Of a stretch of 22,381 bases of DNA, positions 1-16,720 are shown in pieces; the first letter of the stretch is position 1, and each line of letters opens with the position of its first letter. The notes beneath the pieces are model-generated. The model saw only the letters and a list, made by a program, of their open reading frames with translations, was not told where the DNA came from and ran no database searches. A program made the position numbers and the translations under genes. This stretch comes from a virus (taxonomy: Duplodnaviria; Heunggongvirae; Uroviricota; Caudoviricetes): IMG/VR virus record IMGVR_UViG_2585427768_000008, positions 1 to 22,381 of that record; one strand, 5' to 3'.

Positions 1-504
1 AGCATCAGAACCTACGCAGTGAATTGCAATGACGCATGGCTAAACACCGAAGGTGATGACATCTCCGGCTCATACGTTAAGTACAAAGACCATCAGGAAG
101 TGGTTGCCGCTCTTGAGGCCAAGTGCGCGGCGCTGGCTGCTGAGAATGCGGGAATAAAGTCTGCAATTCCAGAATCACGGGATATTGAGGATGACAATGA
201 CAATATGGATGACGTATCTCTCGCGGAAGACTTCGGGTTCAATCATGCAATAGAACGGATGAGGAGACAGATACCTGAAACGCCAACCACTGATGCTTTC
301 CTGGCTGAAGTCCGGGCGCAGGGGGTGGATGCTGCTATAGAAGCTGCAAAAAATCTGGTGGCCCAAGAATATGAGTATAAGGATTTCAAAGCGGCGCAGA
401 GTGATTGCTGTATGCACCCTGGTTCAGACCTGGTAGGGAAGGTTGAAATGACTGAGTGGTTAGTTGACTTTGCTGCCCAGCTTCGCAAAGGAGGCAACCA
501 GTGA
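1..504 (+). CDS. Ead/Ea22-like prophage protein, probably 5'-partial at window edge
   Basis: ORF frame is open from position 1 (first in-frame start is GTG at 19); stop TGA 502-504 overlaps the next start (GTGA). Acidic, coiled-coil-like sequence typical of small lambdoid early-left accessory proteins. Family assignment from memory only. Confidence 0.55.
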   Translation, partial: SIRTYAVNCNDAWLNTEGDDISGSYVKYKDHQEVVAALEAKCAALAAENAGIKSAIPESRDIEDDNDNMDDVSLAEDFGFNHAIERMRRQIPETPTTDAFLAEVRAQGVDAAIEAAKNLVAQEYEYKDFKAAQSDCCMHPGSDLVGKVEMTEWLVDFAAQLRKGGNQ

Positions 505-986
505 GCGAAATTAATTACCAGGCACTGCGTGAGGTGGCGGAACGTGCAATTCCAGCAATGGAACGCCTGTTAATGTTGCCAGCTGATGATGACTTGTTAA
601 GTGAACAGGAACTTAAAGATTACGGTGTGGATATTGATGCGCTCAACGCCTTCAAATTTCTGACCGGACCAGAAACCGTGCTGGCACTGCTGGATGAACG
701 GGAAAGAAACCTGCAATACATCAAAAGCCGCGATCAGGAGAACGAGGATATTGCGCTAACGGTAGGGAAGCTGCGCGTTGAGCTTGAAGCAGAAAAACAG
801 CGGGCAAAAGTTCTATTTATGGAAAATGCTCGGCTTAAGTCAGGCATAGCCGGTCTGATACACCTCGGTATTCGATATGCAGATGTTGAGGTCATGAAAA
901 TTGCTGGAGATGCCCAGCTTTCTACCCCATGCACTGACAGCATCATAAACAGCATTGCAACAGGCATTCGCATCAAAGGAGAGTGA
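501..986 (+). CDS. Ead/Ea22-like prophage protein
   Basis: 161-aa ORF, GTG start preceded by AGGAGG, translationally coupled to the upstream gene. N-terminus MSEINYQALRE resembles Ead/Ea22-family proteins as I remember them. Confidence 0.6.
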   Translation: MSEINYQALREVAERAIPAMERLLMLPADDDLLSEQELKDYGVDIDALNAFKFLTGPETVLALLDERERNLQYIKSRDQENEDIALTVGKLRVELEAEKQRAKVLFMENARLKSGIAGLIHLGIRYADVEVMKIAGDAQLSTPCTDSIINSIATGIRIKGE

Positions 987-987
987 T

Positions 988-1503
988 ATGGCGTTAACAC
1001 ACCACGAACTCTGTCAGATTGCGTACAAGTTCCTTAAGCGCAACGGGTTCAAGGTTTGTTTTCATGACCGCTTTATAGCTGTAACCAGTACCGGAGAACA
1101 GCCAGATGCTATGGGATTCAGAAATTCAGCATCATGCCTGATAGAGGCGAAGTGTTCTCGTGCTGACTTGTTAGCAGATAGAAAAAAGCGTTTTCGTAAA
1201 AATCCGTCTCTTGGAATGGGCGACTGGCGATTCTTTATTAGTGAGCCGGGAATTATTTCAATTGAGGATTTACCACCTGGCTGGGGGTTACTTCACGTTG
1301 TTAACGGAAGAGTACGGAAAGTACATGGGTGGCCCAGGGGTAATTGCTGTTGGGGTAATCCTGACGATAAGCCATTTACTGGAAATAAGCAGGTTGAATG
1401 CGATTACATGTTATCTGCATTAAGGCGCATGGAGTTGAGAGGGCACCTTAATGAAATATATGACGGTGTAATTGTTAATAAGAAAGAAGGAAACGCGGCA
1501 TGA
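988..1503 (+). CDS. hypothetical protein with PD-(D/E)xK nuclease-like motif
   Basis: ATG at 988 with AAGGAG 7 nt upstream (the track start at 955 lacks an RBS). Protein contains ...QPDAMGF...(x13)...LIEAKCS, a PD...ExK signature. Stop overlaps next start (ATGA at 1500). Confidence 0.6.
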   Translation: MALTHHELCQIAYKFLKRNGFKVCFHDRFIAVTSTGEQPDAMGFRNSASCLIEAKCSRADLLADRKKRFRKNPSLGMGDWRFFISEPGIISIEDLPPGWGLLHVVNGRVRKVHGWPRGNCCWGNPDDKPFTGNKQVECDYMLSALRRMELRGHLNEIYDGVIVNKKEGNAA

Positions 1504-2228
1504 TCACTATTACCAAAGAGCGACTACTGACAATCAAGCAGTGCCGCGAAACATACGGACCTGGTAGCAACGTTGTACTGCCAGCAGAAGAAGCGGAAGA
1601 ACTGGCACGGATTGCACTGGCATCGCTGGAAGCAGATCCAGTTAAACGAGTTAACTCAGATCAGATGCGCCGAGTCTGCTTAGAAGCTAATCGCCATTTA
1701 GATAAATATGACGCGATGGCGAAAGAGGTAAATAAGTTGCTTGGACGCATCGCCCCGCCAGCGCCGGTAGTGCCGGAAGAAGCAACTCCGGAAAACGTAG
1801 AAATGCTCTCTGGCTATGTTTCCACGTACAAATTAACCGATAGCGAGCGCGATATTGCTGCCGAAATATGGAACGCCTGCCGCGCCGCCATGCTTCAGTC
1901 CGGAAACTTTCGGGAAAATAAAGATTCGTCAACCAATAATTTTCGGAAAATCCCGGAAGCGTCAACCAACCATCCGGTAACTCCGGATGGTTGGATAAGC
2001 TGTAGTGATCGAATGCCAGAAATGGGAGAGCGACAATACTATGTGTTAGCAGCTGACTTTAAAAACAACTACCCACCAAGCATCCCCAACACTCAGGTCG
2101 GCGTATATGGCGACTGGTTTAATGATGGCAATCCCACTTGGGATGACGGTGATGGCGAAGACCTGCATCTCAAAGAAGTAACCCACTGGATGCCGCTACC
2201 AGAACCGCCGAAGGAGGTACGCCAATGA
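1500..2228 (+). CDS. DUF551-type prophage protein
   Basis: 242-aa ORF; C-terminal W/D-rich segment ending ...THWMPLPEPP matches my recollection of the DUF551 signature found in enterobacterial prophage early regions. Confidence 0.65.
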   Translation: MITITKERLLTIKQCRETYGPGSNVVLPAEEAEELARIALASLEADPVKRVNSDQMRRVCLEANRHLDKYDAMAKEVNKLLGRIAPPAPVVPEEATPENVEMLSGYVSTYKLTDSERDIAAEIWNACRAAMLQSGNFRENKDSSTNNFRKIPEASTNHPVTPDGWISCSDRMPEMGERQYYVLAADFKNNYPPSIPNTQVGVYGDWFNDGNPTWDDGDGEDLHLKEVTHWMPLPEPPKEVRQ

Positions 2229-2315
2229 CCTAGCCTGAAGCATTTGCAATTGTAGTGGCTGCCATTTCGATCGCACTGATTGTTTTTGCGATTTTGCCGC
2301 TGGGGGTAAAATAGT

Positions 2316-2507
2316 TCACCTGCATGGAGATTTGATGCCGGGGAATTGTGGGGGAGCATTCAAACCTCTCCCCTTCCCGGTTAAAGACTCCATTGCTTTG
2401 CGGTCAGAGAGATACATCAGCTTCATCAGCTTAATGAAACGCATAGATCCGCCATGCTTTTTCAGCAAATACGCTGCCATTTGCGCAACTTTTTCTTCAT
2501 TAAACAT
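2316..2507 (-). pseudogene. truncated Panacea (DUF4065)/SocA-like antitoxin fragment
   Basis: 63-aa ORF with N-terminus ...AQMAAYLLKKHGGSMRFIKLMKLMYLSDRKAMESLTG, resembling the Panacea LKLQKLLY core, but it ends after about 60 aa where full-length members run 150-300 aa. Confidence 0.35.
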
Positions 2508-2600
2508 AAATCGGCTCTCTGTCTCACATGAAATACTCTTTCTGACTATATGTTAATAGCTCCGGTTATTACAGGTTAATGTGTGTTTATTTCTTAATCA

Positions 2601-2630
2601 GCCCCGCACTTCCGTACGGGGCCATTTCTG
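2601..2630. terminator. GC hairpin between convergent gene sets, possible bidirectional terminator
   Basis: GCCCCG (2601-2606), 10-nt loop, CGGGGC (2617-2622), followed on the + strand by CATTTCTG. Lies immediately 3' of the giant gene stop (2631-2633, minus strand). Confidence 0.4.
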
Positions 2631-5600
2631 TTAATCCACTCCCACTTTTTTGTTGTACTCGCGGTTAAACCGATCCACGGCAACCTTCATATCCCGCTCT
2701 ACCGATTTCACCATCGCCGCCTGCTGCGCCAGACTGAGAGAACTGTCGGCATAAATGGCATCGCGCTGTTTGCGCAAATCCTTCAGTCTCTTCCGGGTAT
2801 CCTGCATAAGCCCGTTCATCAACAATTTTCCGTTGTTCTCGTCAATGAACGCCGTTCTTTCTGCACCGGTCAGACTCTTCAGCTCTGCGTGATACTGCGC
2901 AACCTCTGTCATCCGGTCGTACATCTTCTGCTGGTCTGCATACGGCATCACCTCACCCGAAATTTTCCCCAGGAAGGGCACCTGCTGTTCCGGTATATCA
3001 ATACCATTCAGCGATTTCACCGCCGCATCCGTGGTTTTGGAAATGAAGCGCCCTGTCCCTCCGGAGATATAGTCAATCCAGAATTTCAGCGATTCCGGTG
3101 TGATATCCACCGCGCCGGGACGATACTGGCTGCCACCTGAGAACGCATTCAGCCAGAATGCAAACGCCTTGTACGCTTCTGGCGTTGAACGTCTTCCCAG
3201 CTGGCTGTCAGGTTTTGGTGTACCAAACGGCATGTTCTCCTGGTAAATCTGCGCCCCCATGAAGTTTTCGTTCATGGCAAGATTCGCAAACGGACGCAGA
3301 ATTGTCGGTGCTGCATTTTTCAGCAATGCCCCCGACAACGTTTCCGACGTCTCGCTGCCGATCGGGCTGAATGCCCCCAGGATACCGCCGACAACATTAC
3401 CGGCAGCACGTGAAGCAGTCAGGTCGCCCGCTGCCACACCTTCAGCTGTATGACCAAGCAGGAAGAACACGTTGTACCCGTAAGGCAGAGGAATACTCCA
3501 GTACTCACCGGCCTTGCCCCCGAACATCGATTTCATGATGACGAGGTTACGCTCTTTCACATGAGACGGTACTTTGTCGTACCAGTTACCCCCGTCATCA
3601 TCCTCCCCCGCCACACTGCGGTTAAGCGAGCCAAGCAGATAACCCGCTCCCACAGCTGCAAGCACGATTTTCTGCGGTACATTGAGATTCTTCCAGCGAA
3701 GGCGCTCCAGTAACGGCCCGTCGCCATTAAGATGTCCGAGCGTTCTCACCAGGTTTGCGGTCCCCTGAATGCTGGCGTTGGCAAACATGTACAGCGAGTT
3801 CATCAGCATCCCCTGCTCACCACGACGGTTAAAGTTCACCGTCATGTTTTTGGCAAGAGACGCCGCCTGCTGGCGTGACAAACCGGCATCACGGGCGTGT
3901 TTATAGGCAGAAAGACGCAGAGCGTTTTCAACCGCGCCGTTGGCATCCTCGACCAGGTTCAGGAACGAATGCCATGCACCGATACTCTGGCCTTTCCATC
4001 CGCCCTTCGCCAGCGACACAAGGCGATCCATTTCCTTCTGCTGGCCCTCAAGGTCACCCATGTTAAACCAGCCGGTTTTACCTCCGTCCTCAACAAACTC
4101 TTTCCACACTTTCTGCCACTGTGCGCCTTTGCCCGTGAGGGTTTTACCCCGCAGACTTGCGTATACGGCTGACATGGCGGAACGGCTGTCTTTCACCACA
4201 GCCAGCGCGGATAAGTTATCCAGCTCTTTCAGTTTACCGTCGCTCCTTCCCTGCTCAGCCTTCAGGTTCATCACCGCAGTCTGCACGTCACGGATGAAGT
4301 TACTGACCAGAAATTCCGGGTTATACGACGTGTTCACCGTTGCCAGGAAGCGGTTAACTTTCCCCAGCGTACGGATTACGGCGTTACTGGTTTCCGGCCC
4401 CATGTTCTTCATCGCACGCATCAGGCGCGGATCATGAAGTTTAATGTAGTAAGTTTTGCCGTCCTTTTTGGTGGTGAAGTAGCGATCCGCCATCATTGCC
4501 ATCGGCACAGGGCGCTCGACAACTTCGCGAATGGTTTCACCAGTTTCCTGGTCCTTGCGCTCTGCAATCACACGCATTGTATCCGGTCTGTCATCAGTGA
4601 ATCCCTGCCAGTAATCCTTGTCGGGATTATCCTGTACCAGTTTCAGGAAGGCGTTACCCACTTCATTTTTGCGATTGCGGATCAGCGATTCACTCAAATC
4701 CTGTATCGCCTGAGTGGAAGGAGACTGTGCGCGGGATGCACGCCCCATGGCCTGCTTACTTTCACGCCCGCCGATGGTGAATCCCTTGCCTGTACGTGGC
4801 TGTGACACCACACCGTCAACATCCTGCCCTTTCAGGGGGACGTAGTAACGGTAGGCTTTCTGCCAGGCATCCACCACGCCGCTCTCTTCCAGTCCTGCCT
4901 CACGGATAATCTCACGGCGACGGGCCAGCATATCGTCAATAATCCCTGCCAGACGGTCATACTGTGCCTGTTTGCCGCTGTTACGCACACGCTGCATGAT
5001 TTCCGCCGCTTCCGCGTTGGTCATCCCCGAACCGCCGTCCGGCATTTTCGGGTTGATTTTCGCAATATGCACGTTACGTTCCGGCGCGTGACGGGCGTAG
5101 AGGTACTCATCCAGATCGGCCTGCGCAATTTTGTAGTCCGCCAGCAATTTGGCCAGCGGCTGAACGTAGCGCTCCTTCATTACGTTCAGGTCGTTTTCCG
5201 CCTTCCCGTGGAAGAGTTCTTCAGCCATATAGGCGTTATTGCTGTCATCTATTTTTCCGCCAGTTTTACGGATATTCTCCTGCACCGCCTTCAGCACCTG
5301 GAATTTATCCTGCATCTGGCGAACAAAACGGGATGCAATTGTCTCTTCCGGCGTCAGACTGCTGGTGCGGGAGTAATACGGCCCCTTGCGAATATCTTCA
5401 GGATAGAGTATTTTATCAACAGAGCCGCGATAAGAATGTTCCCCTTTGGGCAATTGGAGCCCTCTGTGCAGAAGGTTATCGCGGCTTAATTTTTCTCTCC
5501 GGTACAACGTTAAACCGGTCATTTCCATACTCTTCAGTTTTTTCCCGTTTTCCGTACCGTAAACAGATGCCACCTTGTTGATTTCCAGGCGCGACCGGAC

Positions 5601-8600
5601 AGCCTTCATGTGTACCGCTGACACCACCGGATCACCATTTTTATCCACGGCATCAAGCAGCATCACAACCGCGTTTCTTTCTGTCGCGGAACGGTAAATT
5701 GCATCCGGATCGTGCATCAGTTCCGGTAGTCTCTCGATAACATCCATCGGCACCACATGTTTCACACCATTGGTGGCCTTACGCACAGTGTCGCGGGAGA
5801 TAACCAGCGGCAAATCTGGTGCGCCAAGGTGACGCAATACCGGCGGCGTACGCCCGATGTTTACCGTTAAATCCGTTGAGCGCAGAGACTTCATCATTCT
5901 GGCAAGGTCATCACGATAACGCTCGCCCTCACCTTCCGGCACTTTGAACGGATCAGGCTTACCGCTACGGGAGTACTGAGACGATGCGTCCGCGCCATCC
6001 TCACGCGGCGTGTAACCTTCCCGCACACGCTGGCCTAACGTGCGAATAGTTTCGCGAACAAGTCTGATATCGTTCAGTTCCGTCGGCTTCAGTAACCCCG
6101 TACGACGCAGTACCCCTTTGACCAGGGCAACAACACGCTCCCATGCCGCCACGAATTTAATCGGCTGCTTCTCTGCCATATGCGCCAGAAATTCACCCGC
6201 CTGCACTTCCGGTGATTCCTTACCATAAGACGCATCAACCTTACGCCAGGCTTCACGGATGGTGGCGTTATCACTGTCACGGGTTTTCAGCACGGTCTTA
6301 ATAATCGTCTGATATTCCGCTGGCGTGACTACATGCTCCATTGCATGGTGAATAATCTCGTGACGTAACTTCTCGCGAACGGTCCGCCCGTCAGGGATGT
6401 TATCCGCCACCAGGACAATTTCACGTTTATCCGGACGATAGAACGCGTGCACCTTGCCGTAACCGTCGAATGATTCCCCCGCCAGTGCTTCAGCCTCTTT
6501 CTGTGACTTCACCACGCGGACCTTCAGGTCACTGTCCTTAATGCCACTAATCACGCCACGGGCAACAGCTTCAACCTGCGGGACCGGACTGCCTTTGGCT
6601 TCCGCACTACGGTTAACATCCGAAATCAGATTGCCTTCAGGTGTGCGGGTCACGCCCTTACGGGAATAAAACGCAACTCCCTTGTCCGTCTCACGGGTTT
6701 TCAGTGTTCGGAACAAGTGATCGAATGCCTCACGAATACCGCCATCCAGTTCTGCATTCGTCGGATAAGCGTAGGTGTCCGGCTGTCCATGGTCATCCGC
6801 CTTACGGATATTGACCAGATAATCATTCTCCACGCCAGCCATACGCGCTTTATCCTGAACATAACGCTCAAAGGCTCGCGCCGCCATTTCAACATCCGTT
6901 GACCAGTACGGTTTTGAACGAACGCCATCCAGGCGTTCAGAACGACGCAACATGTCACTGCTGTTAATGGCTTTCATCACGCCTTTAAACGCGTCGTAAA
7001 CCTCCTGACGTACCGGATATTCCGCATCAACATACCTGCCGTCTTTAAATACGCGCCCGGCACGCTGTGCTTCCGTCATATAGTCGCCACCTGACGTGAT
7101 CTTCCCGTCAGTGGAAACATCATAACGACCAAAATAATTATCCAGTGAATGGAACCATTCGTGGGCCAGCGCCCCCGGTCCGTTACCTTTTGTCAGGTTG
7201 ATTGCCACCTCACCCGGCTCATAGTGTGCCGCCGCCTTACCCTTACCACGGGCACCAAAAGCAAGCCCAAGACGACCGTTCAGAGAAAGCGCTTTTGTCG
7301 GCACGTTCAGCACGTCAGCCAGGTCATGCAGCGAGTCATAAGCCCGGTTCAAATCAGCCTGACGACGCGGACTTTCCACATAATTACCAAACTGCACACC
7401 ACGAAAACCAAACGCATCACTGAACTGCTCCGGCGAAACATCCCCCTTGCGGCGTTCTGGTCCGGTACGATCGCGGTTGGTGGCGTTACGCTGCTCCTCA
7501 CGCGAGACTTCACGCAGCGCCTTCACCTGATTAACCAGCTCATCACGATGTGTGCGCACATAATCATGTGCATCACGGGCAGACTCAAAACCGCCCTTCA
7601 GTTTCTGCCTGTTTTTGCCATAACCGATAAAAATGTCGCCACTGGCCTTATGCCGGTACACGTCAAAGGTTATTCTGTCATCAGCAGAGGTTGCTGGCGT
7701 TTCCCTTTCTCTGGAGCCTTGTTCATCGAAATATGCTTTCGCCTTTTTCAGTAACTCATCCCGGCTTTCCGAGAAAAAGAGGTCGCGCCCCTTGCTATCA
7801 CGAAGCGAATACATCATTTGCGGCGGATCGTAACGTTTTCCCCCGACAAACGAATAAACACCGGACCTGACACGATAGCCGGATGCTTTATCAATCTGCA
7901 ATGCAGAAAGCGTACGGAGCAGTTTCCAGGTATCCGACATGCTCCGTAACCCCGGCTTACTGTCCATCATATCAGCCAGTTTCGCTGCCGGAATTTTCCC
8001 CTCCAGCATACCGGCAGTAGCTTCGCGACCGCTTTTAACAATGCTGATCCATTTCTGCATGTTACGGCTTGTTCTGGTGGGAATTTCACTGCGATACAAC
8101 GCCATCATTGCCAGCGTGTCACTATCCACACCTTCTTTTTCCAGACGGGCATAATCCGGCTTTGGAAACAGTTTGCTCAGTGGTTGTGTCGCGTACTCCC
8201 CATCCTCCAGCGTTTTACCCATAGCTTCAGCAAGCTGCGCATAACGGTGTTTTGCCGCGCCCTTAATCTCCTCGCCAAAGTCTTCAATTTTCGCACCACG
8301 CGCCTGCTGGTGAGTGCTCGGTTTATCTACCGGCACCGGCACCTCAGTATCCGGAACATCGGTTATGGTCTGGCGATTATCCCCGGTCTGTCTGCGTGCT
8401 TCTGCCTGCTGTGCCAGTTCCGGAAGGGAGTCACGAACCATACGAGGGAGTGATTCAGGCTGTGGCATATCAACCCCACGCTGACTTTCAGGTGCAGGAA
8501 GACCTTCACGCACTGGTGCTGTGGCGTTCTGCTCATCCGGTGACGGCAGACCACGACGAACTGTTTCGCCCTCCAGTATTTCCCCCTGGCGACCAGCGGC

Positions 8601-10484
8601 ATTTTCCGGTGCCTGCGCACGTCCTTTCTGGAAACTCTGGCCCTTCACCTCACCGGTTGTGGTAAAACGACCACCACGTCCGGCCTGATTTTCATCCGGC
8701 GTACGCGCTACTTCTCCTGGTAACGGATATCCCTGTCCGGGATGAATATCGCCGGGAGCGGGAAGGCGTGGACGCTCAGTTAACTCCTGTGCTGTCGGAC
8801 CGGCATCACCTTCAGCCATCTGGGAACGCACCAGTTCTTCCGCCGTCGGCGCGTTGCCACGAGCAAGACGGGCCTGCACTTCTGTATCATCCCCCGTAAA
8901 ACCACGGAATCGCGGGTCACGCATGAACGCGGGCTGTTCCATCGGATCAGCATCAGTAATACGCTCTCCGTCAGCCAGAGTGTTAATGGTCTCCGTTGCC
9001 ACATCTTCAGAGAACGCAGGATTATCCATTTCAACGGCATACTGATTCTCGCCTTTCTTCACTACGGACGGTTTCAGGCCGGTGGCGCTGGCATTGCGGA
9101 AAACGTCGCTCCCCAGAGCACTTTTTTCATCCGTGAAATAACGGTTGTCCGGACGCACCTTTTCAATGCGTTCTGCTGGTCTGGACGCACCACTCTCGTT
9201 AATTTCAATACGAACTTCATCCGGATCGCGGAACCGCACCGTCGGGTAAATACTCCCGTCGCCATCATCCGCATTTTCCGGCTGTGGCTGTGCCTCCGGT
9301 CTGGCCTCCCGCTGAGGGCGAAGCACATCACGTATTGCCTGTAACTGCTGCTCTTCAGTATCAGTACGCCCTTCCTTCTGGCTGAGTTTTCGGTATTCCT
9401 CAAGCAGTTCAGGGCGCGGCTTCGCCTTCAGCTCATCCATCACCGCCTGTCGCTTCGCCTGTTCATCCAGTTCATTCAACAGCTGGCTGGCGGCTTCCCG
9501 GCGATGAACGGCAGACGTGTCTCCCTCATGTGCCATATCCGCATCAGCATACTGTTCCAGAAGCTGCTCGCGATTCATCCCCTGCATAGATTCACGATGC
9601 TGTGCCACCGGATCAACCGGTTCGGGTTGCGGAGCCGATTCGTCCTGAGGAACGCTTTCAGCCTCACGCATGGCTGCTTCATCTGCCGCCTGACGTTTTC
9701 CACGATATCCGGCAGCCGCACCGAATGGTGCCCCCATTGCAGCACCAAGGGCTGCACCTTCGATCGTTGCGTCAGCCACGCCCTCCCACGGTGACACATC
9801 CATTCCGGCGGTCTCACGCAATGCCGTGTTTTCCTGATAGCGTGAATAGCCACCCTGCGCCGCATTAATCGTCCCCTGTTCCGTGGCATTTCTGACAATG
9901 CCGCTTTTAACGGTCTTCGCCGTGCCCCGCATCGCCAGATTAAGCAACTGAGCATCGCCCAGTTTTGCCGCCATGGCATTCACAGCCAGCAATTCAGGAT
10001 CGGTTGCCAGCTGCGCACGCACCTCATCGGCAACACGCTCTTTTGCCAGGTCCATTTTCTGGCGGTCAGTAAGCTGCGCGTGCTGCGGATCTGCATCAAT
10101 TGACAAAAAGGTCTGCTGAAATTTCGGTGACTTCGCCAGCTCAGAATAATCCGCGTTAAGAACAGCATCTGCCGCTGCCATTGCACTCCGCCCTTGCGCA
10201 CTGACAGTGGAATGGGTGATCAGGCCTGCCTGGAAAAAATCCGGCATTTTTTTATCGACAGCTTCGGCTGCCAGTGCTGTGGCTCTTTCCGGCTGCATCC
10301 CTGCCGCGATGTATTTTTTCTCCAGCCCGGCGGTCAGCACTTTTCGCAGAGTGACATCACCCAGCTTTTTAGTCACACCGCCTGCAACCATATCCGGTAC
10401 AAGCGCACCAATCAGGTTAACTCCACAAGCCTTCGCAACTTCAGGGATGCCGACACCTTTAATCGGCTCATCAAGATTTTGCAT
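2631..10484 (-). CDS. giant multidomain protein (about 2617 aa) with zincin-like HExxH motifs; function unknown, possibly polyvalent-protein-like
   Basis: Uninterrupted 7.9-kb ORF on the minus strand. Preferred start is ATG at 10484 (AAGGA 7 nt upstream); the track start at 10517 has no RBS. HEWFH encoded at 7149-7163 and RHEIIHHAMEH at about 6334-6363. No Walker A or methyltransferase motifs seen. GC content visibly higher than the neighbouring AT-rich operon. Confidence 0.9.
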   Translation of the reverse strand: MQNLDEPIKGVGIPEVAKACGVNLIGALVPDMVAGGVTKKLGDVTLRKVLTAGLEKKYIAAGMQPERATALAAEAVDKKMPDFFQAGLITHSTVSAQGRSAMAAADAVLNADYSELAKSPKFQQTFLSIDADPQHAQLTDRQKMDLAKERVADEVRAQLATDPELLAVNAMAAKLGDAQLLNLAMRGTAKTVKSGIVRNATEQGTINAAQGGYSRYQENTALRETAGMDVSPWEGVADATIEGAALGAAMGAPFGAAAGYRGKRQAADEAAMREAESVPQDESAPQPEPVDPVAQHRESMQGMNREQLLEQYADADMAHEGDTSAVHRREAASQLLNELDEQAKRQAVMDELKAKPRPELLEEYRKLSQKEGRTDTEEQQLQAIRDVLRPQREARPEAQPQPENADDGDGSIYPTVRFRDPDEVRIEINESGASRPAERIEKVRPDNRYFTDEKSALGSDVFRNASATGLKPSVVKKGENQYAVEMDNPAFSEDVATETINTLADGERITDADPMEQPAFMRDPRFRGFTGDDTEVQARLARGNAPTAEELVRSQMAEGDAGPTAQELTERPRLPAPGDIHPGQGYPLPGEVARTPDENQAGRGGRFTTTGEVKGQSFQKGRAQAPENAAGRQGEILEGETVRRGLPSPDEQNATAPVREGLPAPESQRGVDMPQPESLPRMVRDSLPELAQQAEARRQTGDNRQTITDVPDTEVPVPVDKPSTHQQARGAKIEDFGEEIKGAAKHRYAQLAEAMGKTLEDGEYATQPLSKLFPKPDYARLEKEGVDSDTLAMMALYRSEIPTRTSRNMQKWISIVKSGREATAGMLEGKIPAAKLADMMDSKPGLRSMSDTWKLLRTLSALQIDKASGYRVRSGVYSFVGGKRYDPPQMMYSLRDSKGRDLFFSESRDELLKKAKAYFDEQGSRERETPATSADDRITFDVYRHKASGDIFIGYGKNRQKLKGGFESARDAHDYVRTHRDELVNQVKALREVSREEQRNATNRDRTGPERRKGDVSPEQFSDAFGFRGVQFGNYVESPRRQADLNRAYDSLHDLADVLNVPTKALSLNGRLGLAFGARGKGKAAAHYEPGEVAINLTKGNGPGALAHEWFHSLDNYFGRYDVSTDGKITSGGDYMTEAQRAGRVFKDGRYVDAEYPVRQEVYDAFKGVMKAINSSDMLRRSERLDGVRSKPYWSTDVEMAARAFERYVQDKARMAGVENDYLVNIRKADDHGQPDTYAYPTNAELDGGIREAFDHLFRTLKTRETDKGVAFYSRKGVTRTPEGNLISDVNRSAEAKGSPVPQVEAVARGVISGIKDSDLKVRVVKSQKEAEALAGESFDGYGKVHAFYRPDKREIVLVADNIPDGRTVREKLRHEIIHHAMEHVVTPAEYQTIIKTVLKTRDSDNATIREAWRKVDASYGKESPEVQAGEFLAHMAEKQPIKFVAAWERVVALVKGVLRRTGLLKPTELNDIRLVRETIRTLGQRVREGYTPREDGADASSQYSRSGKPDPFKVPEGEGERYRDDLARMMKSLRSTDLTVNIGRTPPVLRHLGAPDLPLVISRDTVRKATNGVKHVVPMDVIERLPELMHDPDAIYRSATERNAVVMLLDAVDKNGDPVVSAVHMKAVRSRLEINKVASVYGTENGKKLKSMEMTGLTLYRREKLSRDNLLHRGLQLPKGEHSYRGSVDKILYPEDIRKGPYYSRTSSLTPEETIASRFVRQMQDKFQVLKAVQENIRKTGGKIDDSNNAYMAEELFHGKAENDLNVMKERYVQPLAKLLADYKIAQADLDEYLYARHAPERNVHIAKINPKMPDGGSGMTNAEAAEIMQRVRNSGKQAQYDRLAGIIDDMLARRREIIREAGLEESGVVDAWQKAYRYYVPLKGQDVDGVVSQPRTGKGFTIGGRESKQAMGRASRAQSPSTQAIQDLSESLIRNRKNEVGNAFLKLVQDNPDKDYWQGFTDDRPDTMRVIAERKDQETGETIREVVERPVPMAMMADRYFTTKKDGKTYYIKLHDPRLMRAMKNMGPETSNAVIRTLGKVNRFLATVNTSYNPEFLVSNFIRDVQTAVMNLKAEQGRSDGKLKELDNLSALAVVKDSRSAMSAVYASLRGKTLTGKGAQWQKVWKEFVEDGGKTGWFNMGDLEGQQKEMDRLVSLAKGGWKGQSIGAWHSFLNLVEDANGAVENALRLSAYKHARDAGLSRQQAASLAKNMTVNFNRRGEQGMLMNSLYMFANASIQGTANLVRTLGHLNGDGPLLERLRWKNLNVPQKIVLAAVGAGYLLGSLNRSVAGEDDDGGNWYDKVPSHVKERNLVIMKSMFGGKAGEYWSIPLPYGYNVFFLLGHTAEGVAAGDLTASRAAGNVVGGILGAFSPIGSETSETLSGALLKNAAPTILRPFANLAMNENFMGAQIYQENMPFGTPKPDSQLGRRSTPEAYKAFAFWLNAFSGGSQYRPGAVDITPESLKFWIDYISGGTGRFISKTTDAAVKSLNGIDIPEQQVPFLGKISGEVMPYADQQKMYDRMTEVAQYHAELKSLTGAERTAFIDENNGKLLMNGLMQDTRKRLKDLRKQRDAIYADSSLSLAQQAAMVKSVERDMKVAVDRFNREYNKKVGVD

Positions 10485-10562
10485 AGGGATATCCTTTTTC
10501 GTACTTTCAGTACGCATTATGATTGAACTGAAAGTTTTTGCAAGTGCTTTAGTATCGTACTC
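10485..10562. promoter_or_regulatory. divergent promoter/operator switch region between giant gene and cI-like repressor
   Basis: Minus-strand promoter TTGCAA (10538-10543), 16-nt spacer, CATAAT (complement of 10516-10521). Perfect 15-bp palindrome CGTACTTTCAGTACG (10500-10514) just downstream of the -10; inverted partial copy ACTGAAAGT (10527-10535). A third CGTAC-N5-GTTCA element (10556-10570) overlaps the cI start. cI has no Shine-Dalgarno; TAGTAT (10550-10555) lies 7 nt before its ATG, suggesting a leaderless transcript as for lambda pRM. Confidence 0.5.
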
Positions 10563-11270
10563 ATGGTTCAGAATGAAAAAGTGCGCAAAGAATTCGCCCA
10601 GCGGCTAGCGCAAGCCTGTAAAGAAGCTGGTCTTGATGAACATGGTAGGGGAATGGCTATAGCCCGTGCCCTTTCTCTTTCGTCCAAAGGCGTTAGCAAA
10701 TGGTTTAATGCTGAGTCTTTACCGCGTCAGGAAAAAATGAATGCGCTTGCGAAATTTCTAAACGTTGATGTTGTTTGGCTTCAGCACGGCACTTCGTTAA
10801 ATGGAGCGAATGATGAAGATACTCTTTCATTTGTTGGCAAATTAAAAAAAGGGTTAGTGCGCGTGGTTGGTGAGGCAATTCTTGGTGTTGATGGTGCCAT
10901 CGAGATGACCGAAGAGCGCGATGGGTGGCTCAAAATTTATAGCGATGATCCAGATGCCTTTGGCCTTCGTGTGAAAGGAGACAGCATGTGGCCCAGAATA
11001 AAATCAGGAGAATATGTACTCATTGAGCCTAACACCAAAGTATTCCCGGGTGATGAGGTGTTTGTCAGAACCGTTGAAGGACACAACATGATTAAGGTTC
11101 TTGGCTATGACAGAGATGGAGAATACCAATTTACAAGCATTAACCAGGATCACAGGCCTATAACGTTGCCTTATCATCAAGTAGCAAAGGTGGAGTATGT
11201 AGCTGGTATTCTGAAGCAATCTCGCCATCTGGATGACATCGAGGCAAGGGAGTGGCTGAAAAGTTCGTGA
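10563..11270 (+). CDS. cI: CI-like prophage repressor (N-terminal HTH, C-terminal S24 LexA-like peptidase)
   Basis: 235-aa ORF. N-terminal HTH-like segment (GMAIARALSLSSKGVSKWFN) and C-terminal GDSMWP serine motif with a downstream conserved lysine (MIKVLG), as in LexA/CI autocleaving repressors. Position and orientation match cI relative to the pL operon. Confidence 0.88.
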   Translation: MVQNEKVRKEFAQRLAQACKEAGLDEHGRGMAIARALSLSSKGVSKWFNAESLPRQEKMNALAKFLNVDVVWLQHGTSLNGANDEDTLSFVGKLKKGLVRVVGEAILGVDGAIEMTEERDGWLKIYSDDPDAFGLRVKGDSMWPRIKSGEYVLIEPNTKVFPGDEVFVRTVEGHNMIKVLGYDRDGEYQFTSINQDHRPITLPYHQVAKVEYVAGILKQSRHLDDIEAREWLKSS

Positions 11271-11330
11271 CTTCATCGTCACATAGCTGGTAACCAGTGG
11301 CCAGAAGAAACGTTTGGGTGAGGAGGATAG

Positions 11331-11672
11331 ATGGCGTTCACTGACCTTGAATATCAAGCGGTCAAAAAAGAAGTTCACCAATTCATTGAAAGCATAAGGC
11401 CGCCTGAACATATCCGCAATGAACTGGATATTGTTTATAGCATCAATGACCAAACGATAGATATCGGCGAACAGCGCCCCGTGTGGCAGGGCAACCCAGG
11501 TGAAACAAACATCCTGCCATCAGCAAGAATCAAGTACATACGTTCTCTGGATAGATGGAAAATCTATTGGATGCGGAAGGATATGAAATGGCATCAGTAC
11601 AGTACTGAACTTTCGCTGACTGATGCGCTTGAGCTTGTGCGTGCTGACCCGGATTGCTGCTTCTTCGGATGA
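11331..11672 (+). CDS. hypothetical protein, first gene downstream of cI
   Basis: 113-aa ORF with strong RBS GAGGAGG before the ATG; same strand as cI and no terminator between them. No recognisable motifs. Confidence 0.6.
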   Translation: MAFTDLEYQAVKKEVHQFIESIRPPEHIRNELDIVYSINDQTIDIGEQRPVWQGNPGETNILPSARIKYIRSLDRWKIYWMRKDMKWHQYSTELSLTDALELVRADPDCCFFG

Positions 11673-11739
11673 GTGAAGAGACGTTTGGATGATGGATGGT
11701 CGCAGAGATGCGGCCTGATTCTAAAATAGGATATAAAAA

Positions 11740-12201
11740 ATGAGAATACTAGGTGTTAGAGCGGCGCCCAAAGTTACATCTTTTGTTGTATATTGCACTA
11801 ATGAGTCTGCACTCAAATGTGTTGATGTTATTAAAATACCTTCGACCTTAGACACACCAGAAAAATTAAAGTATGTGAGAAATAACATCCTCGACATTCT
11901 TAATTTATATAATGTTGAATTAGCTGCCATACGCGTTACTGAATCAAACTCTGATAATCTTAGCATTGACCGCCTTTATATAGAAGCTGTTATTCAAGAA
12001 GCATTTTCAAGCAGTGATGTAAGAAAATATTACACTATTAGAAAATCTGGCATGAAATCATCATTGAACCTAACAGAGATCGAGTATAAAGAAATATTGA
12101 AGTCACACCGCAATATAAATGGAATCGATAATTCTGGTTTTACAACTGAAACAAATGAAGCTGTTTTGGCTGCTCTATCTGCGGAGGTAAGGGGATGCTA
12201 A
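11740..12201 (+). CDS. hypothetical protein, upstream partner of Ser/Thr kinase
   Basis: 153-aa ORF in a markedly AT-rich segment; AGGA upstream of the ATG; 3' end overlaps the kinase start by 7 nt. No recognisable motifs. Confidence 0.6.
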   Translation: MRILGVRAAPKVTSFVVYCTNESALKCVDVIKIPSTLDTPEKLKYVRNNILDILNLYNVELAAIRVTESNSDNLSIDRLYIEAVIQEAFSSSDVRKYYTIRKSGMKSSLNLTEIEYKEILKSHRNINGIDNSGFTTETNEAVLAALSAEVRGC

Positions 12202-13241
12202 CTCCATACAAAAGAGCTGATGTAGAATTCGAATGGATTAGTGATCTAGAAGAACAGGGTTGTTTTTCAAAAGTATATCTGGCTCATGACAGACACCTAG
12301 CTCATGACTTGGTGATTAAAGAAATAGAAAAAAAAGAAAACACTAACCACGACGACTACTTTAATGAAGCAAGGCTTCTCTATAAACATGCACATCCAAA
12401 TATTGTGCAAGTTCAGTATGCTGCTCAATGTGAGAGCAATATCTATATAGCCATGCCATTTTATCATAATGGTTCGCTAAACCAATTAATGAAAAAAAAT
12501 AATCTTACAAGCAGGGAGATAATACGGTATTCCATTCAATTTTTAAGTGGACTTTATCATATACACTCAAAAGGTCTTATGCATTTTGATATAAAACCTA
12601 ATAACATTATGATATCAAACAGAAATGAGGCCATGCTATCTGACTTTGGATTATCTCAGTTAGTCAATGAGGAATCGAGAGCTGCGCCTGAGTTTGGATA
12701 TCATTTTCATGTGCCACCGGAATATTTTTCTTTATCAACAAATGATTATAATTTCACATATGACATATATCAGGCAGGATTAACCATATATAGAATGTGT
12801 GTTGGACATGATAATTTTGAAAGAGAAAGATCTGCATTTAGCACGATTGAACAACTCAGAGAGTCGATAATTAATGGCTGCTATCCATTAAAAGAGTATC
12901 CTCCCCATATACATAAAAAATTAATAACAATAGTGAACAAATGCATTCATGTAGATCCAAATGAAAGATATCAATCCGTACTAGATGTACTAAACGATCT
13001 CTCAGCTATAAGTGATGGCGTTCTTGACTGGCGTCTACAGATGACGAAACCAACTAACGGCACATGCGAATGGCAAAAAAAGTCTGGGGACGCTATACTG
13101 TCTATAGTTTTTGACGCAGAAAATTCGTCTACTACTGGTTTTCGTTTATACGATGATGGGCGGAAAAGGCGTGCTACGAACTTAACAATATCCTCAGGAT
13201 GTACCCCTACAAAACTGTATAGGTTATTAAAGGATAACTGA
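12195..13241 (+). CDS. eukaryotic-like (Hanks-type) Ser/Thr protein kinase
   Basis: 348-aa ORF with GGAGG 7 nt upstream. Kinase subdomain motifs in order: glycine-rich-like loop EQGCFSKVY, VIK lysine, catalytic loop HFDIKPNN (about 12583-12606), DFG (12642-12650), PPE (APE-like), DIYQAG. AT-rich. Confidence 0.85.
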   Translation: MLTPYKRADVEFEWISDLEEQGCFSKVYLAHDRHLAHDLVIKEIEKKENTNHDDYFNEARLLYKHAHPNIVQVQYAAQCESNIYIAMPFYHNGSLNQLMKKNNLTSREIIRYSIQFLSGLYHIHSKGLMHFDIKPNNIMISNRNEAMLSDFGLSQLVNEESRAAPEFGYHFHVPPEYFSLSTNDYNFTYDIYQAGLTIYRMCVGHDNFERERSAFSTIEQLRESIINGCYPLKEYPPHIHKKLITIVNKCIHVDPNERYQSVLDVLNDLSAISDGVLDWRLQMTKPTNGTCEWQKKSGDAILSIVFDAENSSTTGFRLYDDGRKRRATNLTISSGCTPTKLYRLLKDN

Positions 13242-13243
13242 TC

Positions 13244-13408
13244 ATGAAAAAGCGCGAGGAAGTAAGCAAGCTGCCTCGCAGACGTGATGCAGCATTAGCG
13301 GTTCCCTACAAAAAAGATGAGTTCATAAGCCCTTCTGATGACAAAAAATTTTCAAAGGCGAAAAGTTTTACATCTACATCTCTAAAAGATAAATACTTTA
13401 AAATCTAG
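13244..13408 (+). CDS. small basic protein (54 aa), translationally coupled to kinase
   Basis: ATG at 13244, 2 nt after the kinase stop, with AAGGA upstream; stop TAG 13406-13408 directly precedes the terminator. Not in the supplied ORF track (below its length cutoff); read by hand. Confidence 0.35.
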   Translation: MKKREEVSKLPRRRDAALAVPYKKDEFISPSDDKKFSKAKSFTSTSLKDKYFKI

Positions 13409-13434
13409 CCCGGCCTCAGCGCCGGGTTTTCTTT
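13409..13434 (+). terminator. rho-independent terminator ending the cI/kinase operon (tIMM-like)
   Basis: CCCGGC (13409-13414), 6-nt loop, GCCGGG (13421-13426), followed by TTTTCTTT. Confidence 0.7.
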
Positions 13435-13605
13435 GCCTCACGATCCCCCACCTAAAAAAACATAACTCATTGTATTTATTGATGTAACTCGCTAAACCAT
13501 GCAGTTCTGATCCCTGCCGCATAACCTTCATCAGCCACATTTTCAAAAATAAATTTCCTTATATATCAGAATCATACTTCGTAGAGTTAATAAATCACCA
13601 AAATT

Positions 13606-13650
13606 CGTACCAATAGTTCTTGATAATGTCGAACTATTGGTTCACTATTA
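13606..13650 (+). promoter_or_regulatory. candidate pL-like promoter with inverted-repeat operator
   Basis: 11-bp inverted repeat ACCAATAGTTC (13609-13619) / GAACTATTGGT (13631-13641) with 11-bp spacer containing TTGATA (13620-13625, -35-like); weak -10-like CACTAT at 13643-13648. CGTAC-N5-GTTCT at 13606-13620 resembles elements in the cI switch region. Confidence 0.4.
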
Positions 13651-13717
13651 TCGTCATCAGCAGGACGCATTACTCACCAGGGCGGTGAATATACAACGAT
13701 TCGAATATGAATCTACG

Positions 13718-13732
13718 GCGCTGACAAAGCGC
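13718..13732 (+). promoter_or_regulatory. nutL-like boxB RNA hairpin (P22 type)
   Basis: GCGCT GACAA AGCGC: 5-bp stem with GACAA pentaloop, the boxB form I recall for phage P22. Lies between the pL-like promoter and the N-like gene. No convincing boxA found upstream. Confidence 0.6.
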
Positions 13733-13742
13733 AATAACCAAA

Positions 13743-13885
13743 GTGAACTTTGGGGTGTGGTGAAGGGTTCATGGACGGGAATATGTCGCACGTAAAGCGG
13801 CGAGGCCTGTGGGACTATTGCCGAATTGAAGTAGGCCGAAACAGGTCGAAATGGGTCTCCCACCTACCACACCACCAAAGTTCAT
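13743..13885 (+). other. long-range helix in the N-like gene leader (possible RNase III-type processing or translational control structure)
   Basis: TGAACTTTGG (13744-13753) and GTGTGGT (13755-13761) pair with ACCACAC (13867-13873) and CCAAAGTTCA (13876-13885), about 17 bp with one bulge, enclosing about 105 nt. The helix ends 1 nt before the AGGAGG Shine-Dalgarno (13887-13892). Confidence 0.4.
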
Positions 13886-13897
13886 CAGGAGGTCTAT

Positions 13898-14998
13898 ATG
13901 ACACGCAGAACTCAGTTCAAAGGCAATTCACGTTCTCGTCGTCGTGAGCGTTTAAAGGCAAAGGCATTAGCTAACTGCGTACTGGCCCGCGAAGAAGCAA
14001 TAAGTTCAGAAGTATTACACCGCCCTACTCTAAGCAGAGCGCAGATTCAGGCTAAAGGTACTCACGAAACGCCTGAGCGCATAGAAGACGCTAAGCCAAT
14101 TAAGTTCATGGCACAGGACGTGATCTGGCAACAGAAAGAATACAGACGCAATCTGGAGCGAGCAGCCATTGTGTACGCGAATGAGTTTGGACATAAGCAA
14201 CCAGAAACTGGTGTATGTCTTCCAAACGTAGCCATTTACGCGGCAGGCTACCGGAAATCAAAACAACTGACGGCGAGGGGATTGATGACCACGCCTTCAG
14301 TTTTGCCGCAAAAGTTATGGCGTCCGCTTGCAGAGATTAAAAACTTCGTTGAAAAAATGCCTGATGGAGTTCGCCTTACGGAAGTTACTAAAAAAGTTAA
14401 GACATTTGCCGAACTGTCAGGAAAGGAGAGAAACCAGCTCATAGATTTTATCGATAAACGGGAAAGCATCATTGTATTTAAGGTCAGAAAAGAAGGTTCT
14501 GGTAACGGAGTAACCTTTTTCCGCCACAAAAAATATGGATATCCCAAACGGGAAGGAAACGTCACAATCACTAAGGACCTTCAATCAAAATTATGTACCA
14601 GATGCGGGCAGACAAAATCAGTCAATGATTTTTATTCAGATGCCAGCAAGCGTGACGGGAGAGCCATTTATTGCAAGAAGTGCGAATCTGCAATGAAACG
14701 CTCACGCAGAAAATGCAACAAATTAATTCTGCAACAACAGGAACCTGAAATGAATAACCTCAAAGCAGTTTCACCTTCACCAGAAATACTCAGAAAACAG
14801 GCTGAAGAATTGCTGAAAGCCGCCGAAATTGCGGAGAAAAAACGCCAGGAAGATGATGCATTCAACAAAAAACTTGCGCCCTTAAAACTTGAAATCCTTC
14901 AGGCCGCCGGAAAAATGCAGCTTAAACTGGACGAATTCATCGACTGTATGGATGAAATGAATAAAGCAGTTCAGAAGCTTAAAGAGCTGACCGCCTGA
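13898..14998 (+). CDS. N-like transcription antiterminator with arginine-rich N-terminus, extended by a CxxC...CxxC zinc-ribbon and coiled-coil C-terminal region
   Basis: 366-aa ORF, AGGAGG 5 nt upstream. N-terminus KGNSRSRRRERLKAKALAN resembles the arginine-rich motif of the P22 N protein (recalled as GNAKTRRHERRRKLAIER) and pairs with the P22-type boxB upstream. CTRCGQ...CKKCES motif near residue 250. Much longer than typical N proteins. Confidence 0.6.
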   Translation: MTRRTQFKGNSRSRRRERLKAKALANCVLAREEAISSEVLHRPTLSRAQIQAKGTHETPERIEDAKPIKFMAQDVIWQQKEYRRNLERAAIVYANEFGHKQPETGVCLPNVAIYAAGYRKSKQLTARGLMTTPSVLPQKLWRPLAEIKNFVEKMPDGVRLTEVTKKVKTFAELSGKERNQLIDFIDKRESIIVFKVRKEGSGNGVTFFRHKKYGYPKREGNVTITKDLQSKLCTRCGQTKSVNDFYSDASKRDGRAIYCKKCESAMKRSRRKCNKLILQQQEPEMNNLKAVSPSPEILRKQAEELLKAAEIAEKKRQEDDAFNKKLAPLKLEILQAAGKMQLKLDEFIDCMDEMNKAVQKLKELTA

Positions 14999-15029
14999 TA
15001 TTAATAAATTGCAACTACCGGAGTTAACT

Positions 15030-15389
15030 ATGAACGAAACAGAACTGAAGCACATTATCGCCCTGCTTCTGGAAGATGCCAGACAGGTTTATCGACTTAG
15101 CCCAAATTCCGCAACGCTGACACGCATCCAGATGGCAGAAAAAGCACTGAAACAGGATAATGAAAACAGCGCATCCGAAGTTGATGCTAATGGTGAAAAT
15201 GAAGTAATAGAAATAAACAGCAATATCAGCGATAGTTGCGTCGCTTACAGCCACCAAATAATTCGTGTAAGTGCAAGAATAATGGAAGTGATGGCAAGTG
15301 AGCTTGAAAAGAACAACATCAAGCCCACTGATTGTTGTTTAAGAACCGTAATGAACGTTATTTATTACTCGATGTTCCGAAGTCGCTAA
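15030..15389 (+). CDS. hypothetical protein
   Basis: ATG at 15030 with GGAG 6 nt upstream (the track start at 15009 is TTG without an RBS). 119 aa, no recognisable motifs. Confidence 0.5.
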   Translation: MNETELKHIIALLLEDARQVYRLSPNSATLTRIQMAEKALKQDNENSASEVDANGENEVIEINSNISDSCVAYSHQIIRVSARIMEVMASELEKNNIKPTDCCLRTVMNVIYYSMFRSR

Positions 15390-15567
15390 CAGCGTCGAGT
15401 TTTTCATCAAAAAATGATTCAAATGCATCGTAAAATACGGCAATAGCACCGCCCTTATCTACCGCGGCAGGAACTGCCTTTTGAGGTATATCTTTCTCCC
15501 TGAATTGTGTGTTGTAGGTATCGACAGCCAGCCGCATCAGAAACATCACTTTTTCTTCTTGTGTCAT
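15358..15567 (-). CDS. hypothetical small protein (69 aa), antisense to the surrounding operon
   Basis: Minus-strand ATG at 15567 preceded by a strong AAGGAGAG Shine-Dalgarno; 3' end overlaps the convergent + gene by 32 nt. Confidence 0.45.
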   Translation of the reverse strand: MTQEEKVMFLMRLAVDTYNTQFREKDIPQKAVPAAVDKGGAIAVFYDAFESFFDEKLDAVSDFGTSSNK

Positions 15568-15806
15568 AAATTCACTCTCCTTACGGGGTTTGTAGTTGAG
15601 GAGTTCTCCACGGGTGAGGTGGAGATCGTGCGCCGGACACGGGTAAGTTCCGGCACTCTCAGTTTACTGAACAGACATTACCCTGAAAGCCAGGGTACAA
15701 CACGAAAGTGCACGGCGAAGACTCTTTCCCATTGAAGGCTTGTCGTTAGATTTCTTCGACCGTGCGCTTCCGGTTGTGAATAACAACATTGCTGTGTGTA
15801 GCCCTT

Positions 15807-16245: not shown

Positions 16246-16328
16246 CGAGTAATAAAATACCCCTTCCATATCTGTAACAGACAAGCCGAAATAAAACCGC
16301 ATTAATTATCAATCACGGAAAAATCAAA

Positions 16329-16715: not shown

Positions 16716-16720
16716 AATAA

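Follow-up and report, generated by a model that had tools for sequence, protein, structure and literature searches.

The stretch of 22,381 nucleotides analysed here (in the following called the window; IMG/VR record IMGVR_UViG_2585427768_000008) is most likely, with a probability of roughly 0.85, a defective 933W-like (Sepvirinae) prophage that resides in ynfG of E. coli 7-233-03_S3_C3 and that was made by one internal deletion of ~36.7 kb. It is a strain-specific cryptic prophage of an ordinary kind. The ~36.7-kb deletion would have been generated by a single illegitimate recombination event, with the ends joined at a TAAC microhomology, and it would have taken cro from codon 23 on, cII, the replication genes, the nin region and Q, the lysis, terminase, portal, capsid and tail genes, as well as lom, hok, five small late genes and the first ~188 codons of a giant late gene. 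The remnant would thereby retain the 933W-type immunity genes (cI, Stk), Red/RecE-type recombination genes and, behind the repressor-controlled rightward promoter, an in-frame fusion of Cro(1-22) with the polyvalent protein encoded by the giant gene. Such a remnant is presumably unable to replicate or to make particles.

The main evidence comes from the complete ynfG prophages of ES5 (NZ_CP133871.1) and FORC_069 (NZ_CP023061.1), which resemble the window element in their integration site, their integrase protein, an accessory block that faces an LPD5/LPD38 gene, and their cI-to-int arm, with DNA identities of 98.5-99.5% to the window. Unlike the window, they still have the interval between cro and the 5' end of the giant gene, which measures 36.7 to ~39 kb. 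In ES5, one single complete prophage in ynfG carries both halves of the window colinearly and on the same strand (970-10418 at 98.6% and 10418-22381 at 98.8% identity), separated by 36,735 bp. These 36.7 kb, present in ES5 and missing in the window, hold the morphogenesis genes, and the window therefore is a remnant rather than a functional member. In FORC_069, positions 1-10421 of the window match the right end of the prophage at 99.5% and positions 14860-22381 match the left end of the same prophage at 98.5%. At 10418-10424, the match to the giant gene of FORC_069 and ES5 stops and the match to cro of ES5 and EDL933 starts. The breakpoint is at GGTTAAC/TCCACAAG, where both parents share TAAC, and the join leaves the reading frame intact. 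The original prediction, which had been made from the letters of the window alone, was thus right in its conclusion that the element is rearranged, as the 36,735-bp stretch of ES5 is missing at this point, but its argument from the position of the accessory block fails, as described further below. The true lesion is a 7-base junction that lies ~8 kb outside the region flagged at that time. The features of the window are the following:

1-504 (ORF 19-504), plus strand: Ea22-like gene, 5'-truncated (PF13935, E 9e-10, 39.7 bits)
501-986, plus strand: second Ea22-like gene (PF13935, E 4e-31, 108.8 bits, full profile length; phrog_368)
988-1503, plus strand: gene for a 171-aa protein with a predicted PD-(D/E)xK fold, SPO1766/3dnx-like (fold comparison)
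1500-2228, plus strand: DUF551 gene, the last of the accessory block (PF04448, E 8e-20, 71.9 bits)
2316-2507, minus strand: 63-aa ORF, conserved hypothetical (phrog_3658, first 62 of 91 positions only)
2631-10484, minus strand: cro'-'giant fusion ORF, 2617 aa, KEN06018.1 (Pfam, alignment and translation of the junction, exact protein look-up)
10418-10424, no strand: deletion junction with TAAC microhomology (switch of identity from giant gene to cro)
10419-10484, minus strand: cro remnant, codons 1-22 of 75 (first 22 residues identical to Cro of ES5 and EDL933)
10485-10562, no strand: cro-cI intergenic region, intact (sequence identity to lysogens)
10563-11270, plus strand: cI repressor (PF00717, S24 peptidase, and HTH_3)
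11331-13241, plus strand: low-GC insert of the 933W immunity region with DUF3024, a RuvC-like resolvase and the serine/threonine kinase Stk
13898-14998, plus strand: N antiterminator with readthrough, 366 aa
16823-20653, plus strand: recombination genes for a RecE-family protein, gam, bet and exo
21218-22381, plus strand: tyrosine integrase, ynfG-specific (PF00589)

Gene content and orientation are as originally described, with two Ea22-like genes, a PD-(D/E)xK gene and a DUF551 gene on the plus strand that converge on the giant gene, followed by the cI-to-int arm. Both Ea22-like genes exceed the Pfam gathering score of PF13935 (27 bits), and the DUF551 gene exceeds that of PF04448 (22 bits). 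The first Ea22-like gene has no 5' end because the contig, and hence the window, whose position 1 is contig position 1, begins inside this gene; its full-length homologue is found in FORC_069 (L002, 11818-12504). The 63-aa ORF follows the giant gene on the minus strand and is annotated in FORC_069, ES5 and POCJ13. The cI-to-int arm is complete on the plus strand, with cI, DUF3024, the RuvC-like gene, the Stk kinase gene, N, the RecE-family gene, gam, bet, exo and int. As there are only a DUF4222 gene and an unassigned 68-aa ORF in the exo-int interval (20654-21217), the accessory block cannot be called a "second" cluster of its type, as had been done. No excisionase was recognised in 20957-21217, no RNA family of Rfam was matched, and within the window there are no terminase, portal, N4-gp56-type capsid or short-tail genes. 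The statement that cro, replication and late genes are all lacking needs two corrections: the first 22 codons of cro survive, and the absence of late genes is not strictly true, because the late operon of intact relatives has the giant gene, after the tail genes, and then the 63-aa ORF as its last genes.

Are two prophages needed to explain such a combination of halves? The original prediction had offered the juxtaposition of two prophage arms as one possibility, and the halves could in principle stem from tandem lysogens at ynfG or from prophages at separate loci that were joined by illegitimate recombination. The best matches of the two halves do differ (FORC_069 for the left, ES5 for the right), the immunity region is of the 933W type and unlike that of FORC_069, and several related prophages are common in one strain, with a median of 3 and a maximum of 21 matching places per E. 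coli genome. However, ES5 has both halves in one prophage at near-equal identity, so that a juxtaposition of arms is not needed, the left arm of the very same FORC_069 prophage matches 14860-22381, and a single, simple internal deletion accounts for the order, the orientation and the ynfG attL side. The differences of the immunity modules correspond to ordinary lambdoid mosaicism. An origin from two prophages is therefore quite unlikely, although a deletion that spans tandem lysogens would leave exactly this sequence. The other possibility that had been offered, a replacement of the right arm by the giant gene, comes close but is inverted, as the giant gene itself belongs to the right arm, of which it is the distal part that survived. 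With regard to the parents of the remnant, the immunity region of FORC_069 differs and ES5 is only ~98.7% identical, and none of the sequenced relatives alone qualifies as a near-identical parent.

The junction could also be a chimera that arose during assembly, in which case the strain would carry an intact prophage. Junction and fusion are known from one draft assembly (contig JORV01000119.1) and from nowhere else: the junction is absent from 5,426 complete E. coli genomes and from the GTDB species-representative genomes, and the fusion protein has 1 copy among ~15 billion proteins, which is that of E. coli 7-233-03_S3_C3. The same contig bears a further singleton change, in that the stop codon of N is lost (TGA to GGA at 14279-14281), resulting in the readthrough into the next ORF and thus in 366 aa. 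Against a chimera, the two sides share only 4 bp, whereas short-read assemblers use overlaps of tens of bases, from which we infer that the join must be present in the reads. Moreover, the orientation of the join is exactly as expected for an internal deletion, and the contig extends 101 kb into host DNA. An assembly artefact thus appears very unlikely, and a real internal deletion in one prophage remains by far the best explanation.

The integration site agrees with this internal deletion. The original prediction had considered a tRNA gene as the integration target, but the integrase targets ynfG, and there is neither a tRNA gene nor an att-like repeat in the window. The integrase protein is identical to the ES5 integrase, and FORC_069 shares both the integrase protein and the ynfG site. 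On the right, no complete lambdoid prophage follows, in agreement with what had been expected for a rearranged element: int is directly followed by host ynfG-ynfH-dmsD-clcB, and attL with its core TTTAAAG (~7 bp) lies ~50 bp past the window end. On the left, the window edge coincides with the contig end inside the first Ea22 gene, and therefore attR and ynfF, which in ES5 and FORC_069 lie beside the accessory block, would be expected there also in this strain. A literature search by accession found no paper.

Why does a block of early accessory genes face a giant late gene? The original prediction had regarded this position as abnormal, since such genes would normally lie between exo and xis, but the same arrangement is present in POCJ13, in the complete ynfG prophages of FORC_069 and ES5, in 22 complete E. 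coli genomes and in circular 933W, in which the order is int, attP, Ant, TraR and Ea22, facing LPD38. It is the normal layout in 933W-like (Sepvirinae) short-tailed lambdoid phages, just past attP. We thus rejected a displacement of the block from the pL operon, as intact phages and prophages have it at the same place. Shigella phage POCJ13 (Sepvirinae, Diegovirus; Stx-converting), with 93-97% DNA identity to the window, has the same order at its right end, i.e. the giant LPD5 gene and small ORFs, facing DUF551, the 171-aa gene, Ea22, DUF4752 and Ant, but its genome, with 62.7 kb, is that of a complete phage, and its integrase and integration site differ. Shigella phage Ss-VASD (Sepvirinae, Oslovirus) has the same Ea22/171-aa/DUF551 block at ~97% and the same giant gene ending the late operon, but its block is located between exo and int, as had originally been expected, and its giant gene is followed by nothing but a hok gene. 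The block is therefore found on either side of int/attP. In the proposed scheme, the block of the window would not be displaced at all but would lie just beyond attP on the int strand; in the circular phage it would represent the distal end of the leftward early region and converge on the last late gene, and integration would put it at the prophage end opposite int.

In the circular phage, the block may well be read from pL across attP, by analogy with the lambda b region, the genes of which are read from the N-antiterminated pL transcript across att. The lambda b region (ea47, ea31, ea59) and the exo-xis region (ea22, ea8.5) likewise comprise non-essential accessory genes on the int strand that flank int/attP and face the end of the late genes, but only the Ea22 domain is homologous to the block. 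Scans for promoters and terminators in the accessory block and in its upstream region in FORC_069 gave counts that are not above the shuffled expectation, and for this reason no claim is made on promoters of the block's own. Ea22 has been reported to favour lysogeny (PMC7093339).

The 171-aa protein of the block (ORF 988-1503) has no Pfam match, even at E-values up to 10, and phmmer gave no match against PDB sequences. It is predicted to have the restriction-endonuclease-like alpha/beta core fold of the PD-(D/E)xK superfamily, an assignment settled only by fold comparison. The residues E37, D40, E53 and K55 do not vary among 31 homologues (59-98% identity), which fits the D...(D/E)xK pattern.

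At the other end of the remaining right arm, alignment and translation give a fusion protein that consists of Cro residues 1-22 and the polyvalent protein from residue 189 on, with the domains LPD5, LPD1, MuF_C and LPD38 all above the Pfam cut-off. The gene call begins at the cro ATG at 10484, and the ORF extends on the minus strand from an upstream ATG at 10517 (2631-10517); the protein version starting there had no record by exact look-up. The missing N-terminus of the giant protein (~186-188 residues) contains no Pfam domain, only family-specific PHROGs, and is conserved in the family (phrog_616). [quoted passage not shown] A packaging of the fusion is impossible here, because no virion genes remain.

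Of the lambdoid immunity layout, cI and the intergenic region are intact, while cro has only 22 of its 75 codons. The 933W-type prophage in the EDL933 record encodes identical cI and Stk proteins, positions 10418-10750 are 100% identical to ES5 and other lysogens, and the cro-cI intergenic region has 3 differences from EDL933. In lambdoid phages, the cro-cI intergenic region contains the right operators with pR and pRM. The region at 10485-10562 thus probably functions as an operator, and as it is intact, the fusion is probably repressed by cI.

Could the host have gained from the fusion of Cro' and the polyvalent protein under cI control, along with cI and Stk, so that the deletion was retained? 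The two parts of the fusion share one uninterrupted frame of 2617 codons, the cI and Stk proteins are unchanged relative to EDL933, and the PD-(D/E)xK gene is intact in the window, whereas it is annotated as frameshifted in FORC_069 and ES5. However, the fusion is a singleton without any sign of spread or conservation, its frame would be kept by chance in 1 of 3 cases, and the N-terminal residues that were lost are conserved in the family. A complete and seemingly intact prophage carries the giant ORF with 99.5% DNA identity, which makes the deletion recent and the open frame uninformative on selection. A domesticated element is thus highly improbable, and it is just as far-fetched that the fusion, and with it a protein otherwise made late and shipped in virions, becomes an SOS-inducible host product that, if retained, marks an early step of domestication, e.g. 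as an abortive-infection or anti-phage weapon beside cI and Stk. The preferred reading, a recent internal deletion, would add one more defective element to a known kind: Rac, DLP12 and Qin of E. coli K-12 are remnants in which deletions have removed replication and/or morphogenesis genes and which keep integrase, recombination or immunity genes. These are old and lineage-fixed, whereas the remnant in the window looks recent and strain-specific.

Beyond correct annotation, the importance of the finding is small. An Ea22/DUF551 block that faces a giant LPD gene in 933W-like phages does not warrant any flag for a rearrangement. The strain likely holds an immobile remnant that probably still provides 933W-type immunity, Stk exclusion and recombination genes, presumably with no phage output.

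The gene map of the whole window, from a six-frame ORF listing and profile searches, reads as follows:

19-504, plus strand: Ea22-like gene, cut by the window start (above the Pfam curated threshold)
501-986, plus strand: second Ea22-like gene (above the Pfam curated threshold)
988-1503, plus strand: 171-aa gene, PD-(D/E)xK call
1500-2228, plus strand: DUF551 gene (above the Pfam curated threshold)
2316-2507, minus strand: 63-aa ORF
2631-10517 as listed, with the called gene start at 10484, minus strand: giant ORF
10563-11270, plus strand: cI, with HTH and S24 peptidase domains
right of cI, plus strand: DUF3024, RuvC-like resolvase and Stk kinase, within a low-GC stretch
further right, plus strand: N, kil, RecE-family protein, gam, bet, exo and DUF4222
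right end, plus strand: tyrosine integrase, ending at the exact last base of the window

No tRNA genes, Rfam matches or long repeats were found across the window. The low-GC island (11500-13500; 0.34-0.37 as against about 0.5 elsewhere) spans the RuvC-like gene and the Stk kinase in the immunity region, and looks like a foreign insert that came with the 933W-type immunity module. Further to the right, two recombination-related modules adjoin in the early-left arm (16823-20653), as they do in the complete ynfG prophages of E. coli ES5 (NZ_CP133871.1) and FORC_069 (NZ_CP023061.1): the 690-aa RecE-family protein, with an N-terminal Exonuc_VIII as its sole recognised domain, lies immediately upstream of a full gam-bet-exo set.

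The element is rearranged, as the original prediction had it, but at 10418-10424 and not for the reason given there, which was the position of the accessory genes at 1-2630. The giant-gene match to FORC_069 and ES5 ends at 10421-10424, and a cro-cI match to ES5, EDL933 and hundreds more lysogens begins at 10418. In a three-way alignment, the switch occurs at GGTTAAC/TCCACAAG, with TAAC present in both parental sequences, and in the resulting fusion protein Cro residues 1-22 (MQNLDEPIKGVGIPEVAKACGV) continue in frame with the giant protein, starting at its residue 189 (NLIGALVPDM...). At the sequence level, the comparison with ES5 is decisive for this rearrangement, as its single ynfG prophage matches both 970-10418 (98.6%) and 10418-22381 (98.8%) with strand and order unchanged. 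The two parts lie 36,735 bp apart in ES5, and this interval carries the remainder of cro, cII, replication genes, nin genes and Q, then lysis genes, terminase, portal, an N4-gp56-type capsid and tail genes, and finally lom, hok, five small genes and the initial codons of the giant gene. Similarly, one FORC_069 prophage matches 1-10421 with its right arm and 14860-22381 with its left arm (98.5% identity for the latter), the equivalent gap being about 39 kb. At the protein level, cI and Stk are identical to those of EDL933, and cI and Int to those of ES5. The junction is the single lesion of the element.

This junction is a singleton. Neither the complete E. coli genomes nor the species-representative genomes contain it, its fusion protein is the sole member of its cluster among about 15 billion proteins, and no complete genome searched covers the whole window. 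Such a singleton could in principle stem from a mis-join during assembly, but the 4-bp overlap is much too short for this and the geometry of the join exactly fits an internal deletion, so that we consider an assembly artefact very improbable.

Could the right arm instead have been replaced by the giant gene, as also proposed in the original prediction? The giant gene terminates the late operon in every intact relative and is therefore itself a late gene, which leads us to reject a foreign replacement. With its LPD5, LPD1, MuF_C and LPD38 domains, the product is a polyvalent protein sensu Iyer et al. 2017 (PMC5512222), who predict that such phage proteins are carried in virions and injected along with the DNA.

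The window begins at base 1 of its source contig, JORV01000119.1 (101,319 bp; GCA_000713355.1, E. coli 7-233-03_S3_C3). This contig, traced through an exact protein match, terminates on the left within the first Ea22 gene. On the right, a complete prophage in the flank, which had been considered a possible objection to a rearrangement, is excluded, as the contig runs from int into host ynfG (184 aa), ynfH, dmsD and clcB. The right-side att junction reads ...CAACAAC-TTTAAAG-ATCTTGG..., and the attR side in FORC_069 ...AAAGAT-TTTAAAG-TTGGTTAC..., so that the common att core is about 7 bp (TTTAAAG). The ynfG ORF adjoining int (18522-19076 of source-contig locus L005) starts within phage-derived sequence just left of this core, and the prophage seems to provide a substitute 5' end to the interrupted gene.

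The accessory block occupies its native place. Its convergence on the giant gene had been taken as abnormal, yet intact phages and prophages have the same layout. FORC_069 matches 1-10424 with 99.5% identity (megablast, complete E. coli genomes), and the annotated order at its right end is ynfF, a ynfG 5' fragment, AntA/B, Ant, BRO, TraR, DUF4752, two Ea22 genes, a frameshifted 171-aa gene and DUF551, facing a 63-aa ORF, the LPD38 giant gene (2784 aa), five small genes, hok, lom and tail genes; the remainder of the prophage is complete and terminates at the integrase adjoining ynfG-ynfH. The right end of the Stx phage POCJ13 (Sepvirinae, Diegovirus) matches the window layout, and in 933W, seen in a circularly permuted EDL933 record, int is followed by a gap with attP, Ant, TraR, Ea22 and more genes, which face LPD38. 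Convergence of DUF551 and the giant gene recurs in 22 complete E. coli genomes, which match a 1.8-kb probe over 80% or more of its length. In contrast, Ss-VASD (Sepvirinae, Oslovirus) carries the Ea22/171-aa/DUF551 block at about 97% identity between exo and int, and hok alone comes after its giant gene. These placements characterize the block as a movable cassette that always keeps to the int strand but can lie to either side of int/attP. Past attP, it forms the distal end of the leftward early region of the circular phage, and integration, by cutting the phage at attP, brings the block to the opposite prophage end. We infer that once excised, the block may be read from pL across attP, for which the lambda b region is the analogy; promoter and terminator pattern scans of the block were uninformative. 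The EDL933 record (NZ_CP124742.1, 'plasmid unnamed1', 212 kb) is a RefSeq "plasmid" with a 933W-type phage genome in which int precedes the post-attP genes, and rather than a true plasmid may represent phage DNA that was excised or concatemeric, or an artefact of assembly.

The gene content originally assigned to the block was correct. Sequence searches did not confirm the PD-(D/E)xK call of the 171-aa gene, with no match in Pfam to E 10 or in PDB sequences; the gene family, with 316 hits, is common across Enterobacterales and lacks a Pfam model. The gene is intact in the window and POCJ13, and annotated as frameshifted in both nearest complete prophages, FORC_069 (L002 12988-13166) and ES5 (L010 12113-12291). 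Of the 91 positions of phrog_3658, the 63-aa ORF covers the first 62 only, and it looks like a truncated gene remnant where opposing transcription directions converge, and a GC-rich hairpin (about 2601-2623) lies directly past the giant-gene stop. Records labelled phage P1 or P1-like (MH422554, MH445380, MH445381, JL22) carry the 1-2017 block at about 96% identity, and E. coli genomes have about 395 plasmid places matched by parts of a 1500-3300 probe (DUF551 gene to giant gene 3' end), so that the cassette moves between lambdoid phages and phage-plasmids.

Two further peculiarities concern the early-left arm. The N stop (14279-14281) is GGA in the window versus TGA in ES5 and EDL933, so that N (127 aa) reads through into the next ORF to give a 366-aa protein; either a genuine mutation or an erroneous base call may underlie this. 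The downstream ORF belongs to phrog_2539, with weak matches to HNH and endonuclease VII families, and the fusion is unique to E. coli 7-233-03_S3_C3. No excisionase was recognised by Pfam or PHROG between DUF4222 and int (20957-21217), where a 68-aa ORF (20980-21186) has no match in either; at the equivalent place, ES5 and FORC_069 have an annotated partial helix-turn-helix pseudogene, and this ynfG prophage type may carry a degenerate xis.

The window carries an ordinary defective prophage, specific to its strain, from a phage family that is well known, and its near-identity to intact relatives indicates a recent deletion. As it lacks the genes for replication, lysis and morphogenesis, the element should be unable to produce phage, and it retains cI (933W-type immunity), Stk, N, recombination genes and int. 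Nothing suggests selection for the fusion, as a frame is kept by chance in one of three cases. Since the cro-cI intergenic region is intact, the Cro'-giant fusion should be repressed in the lysogen and turned on after SOS cleavage of cI.
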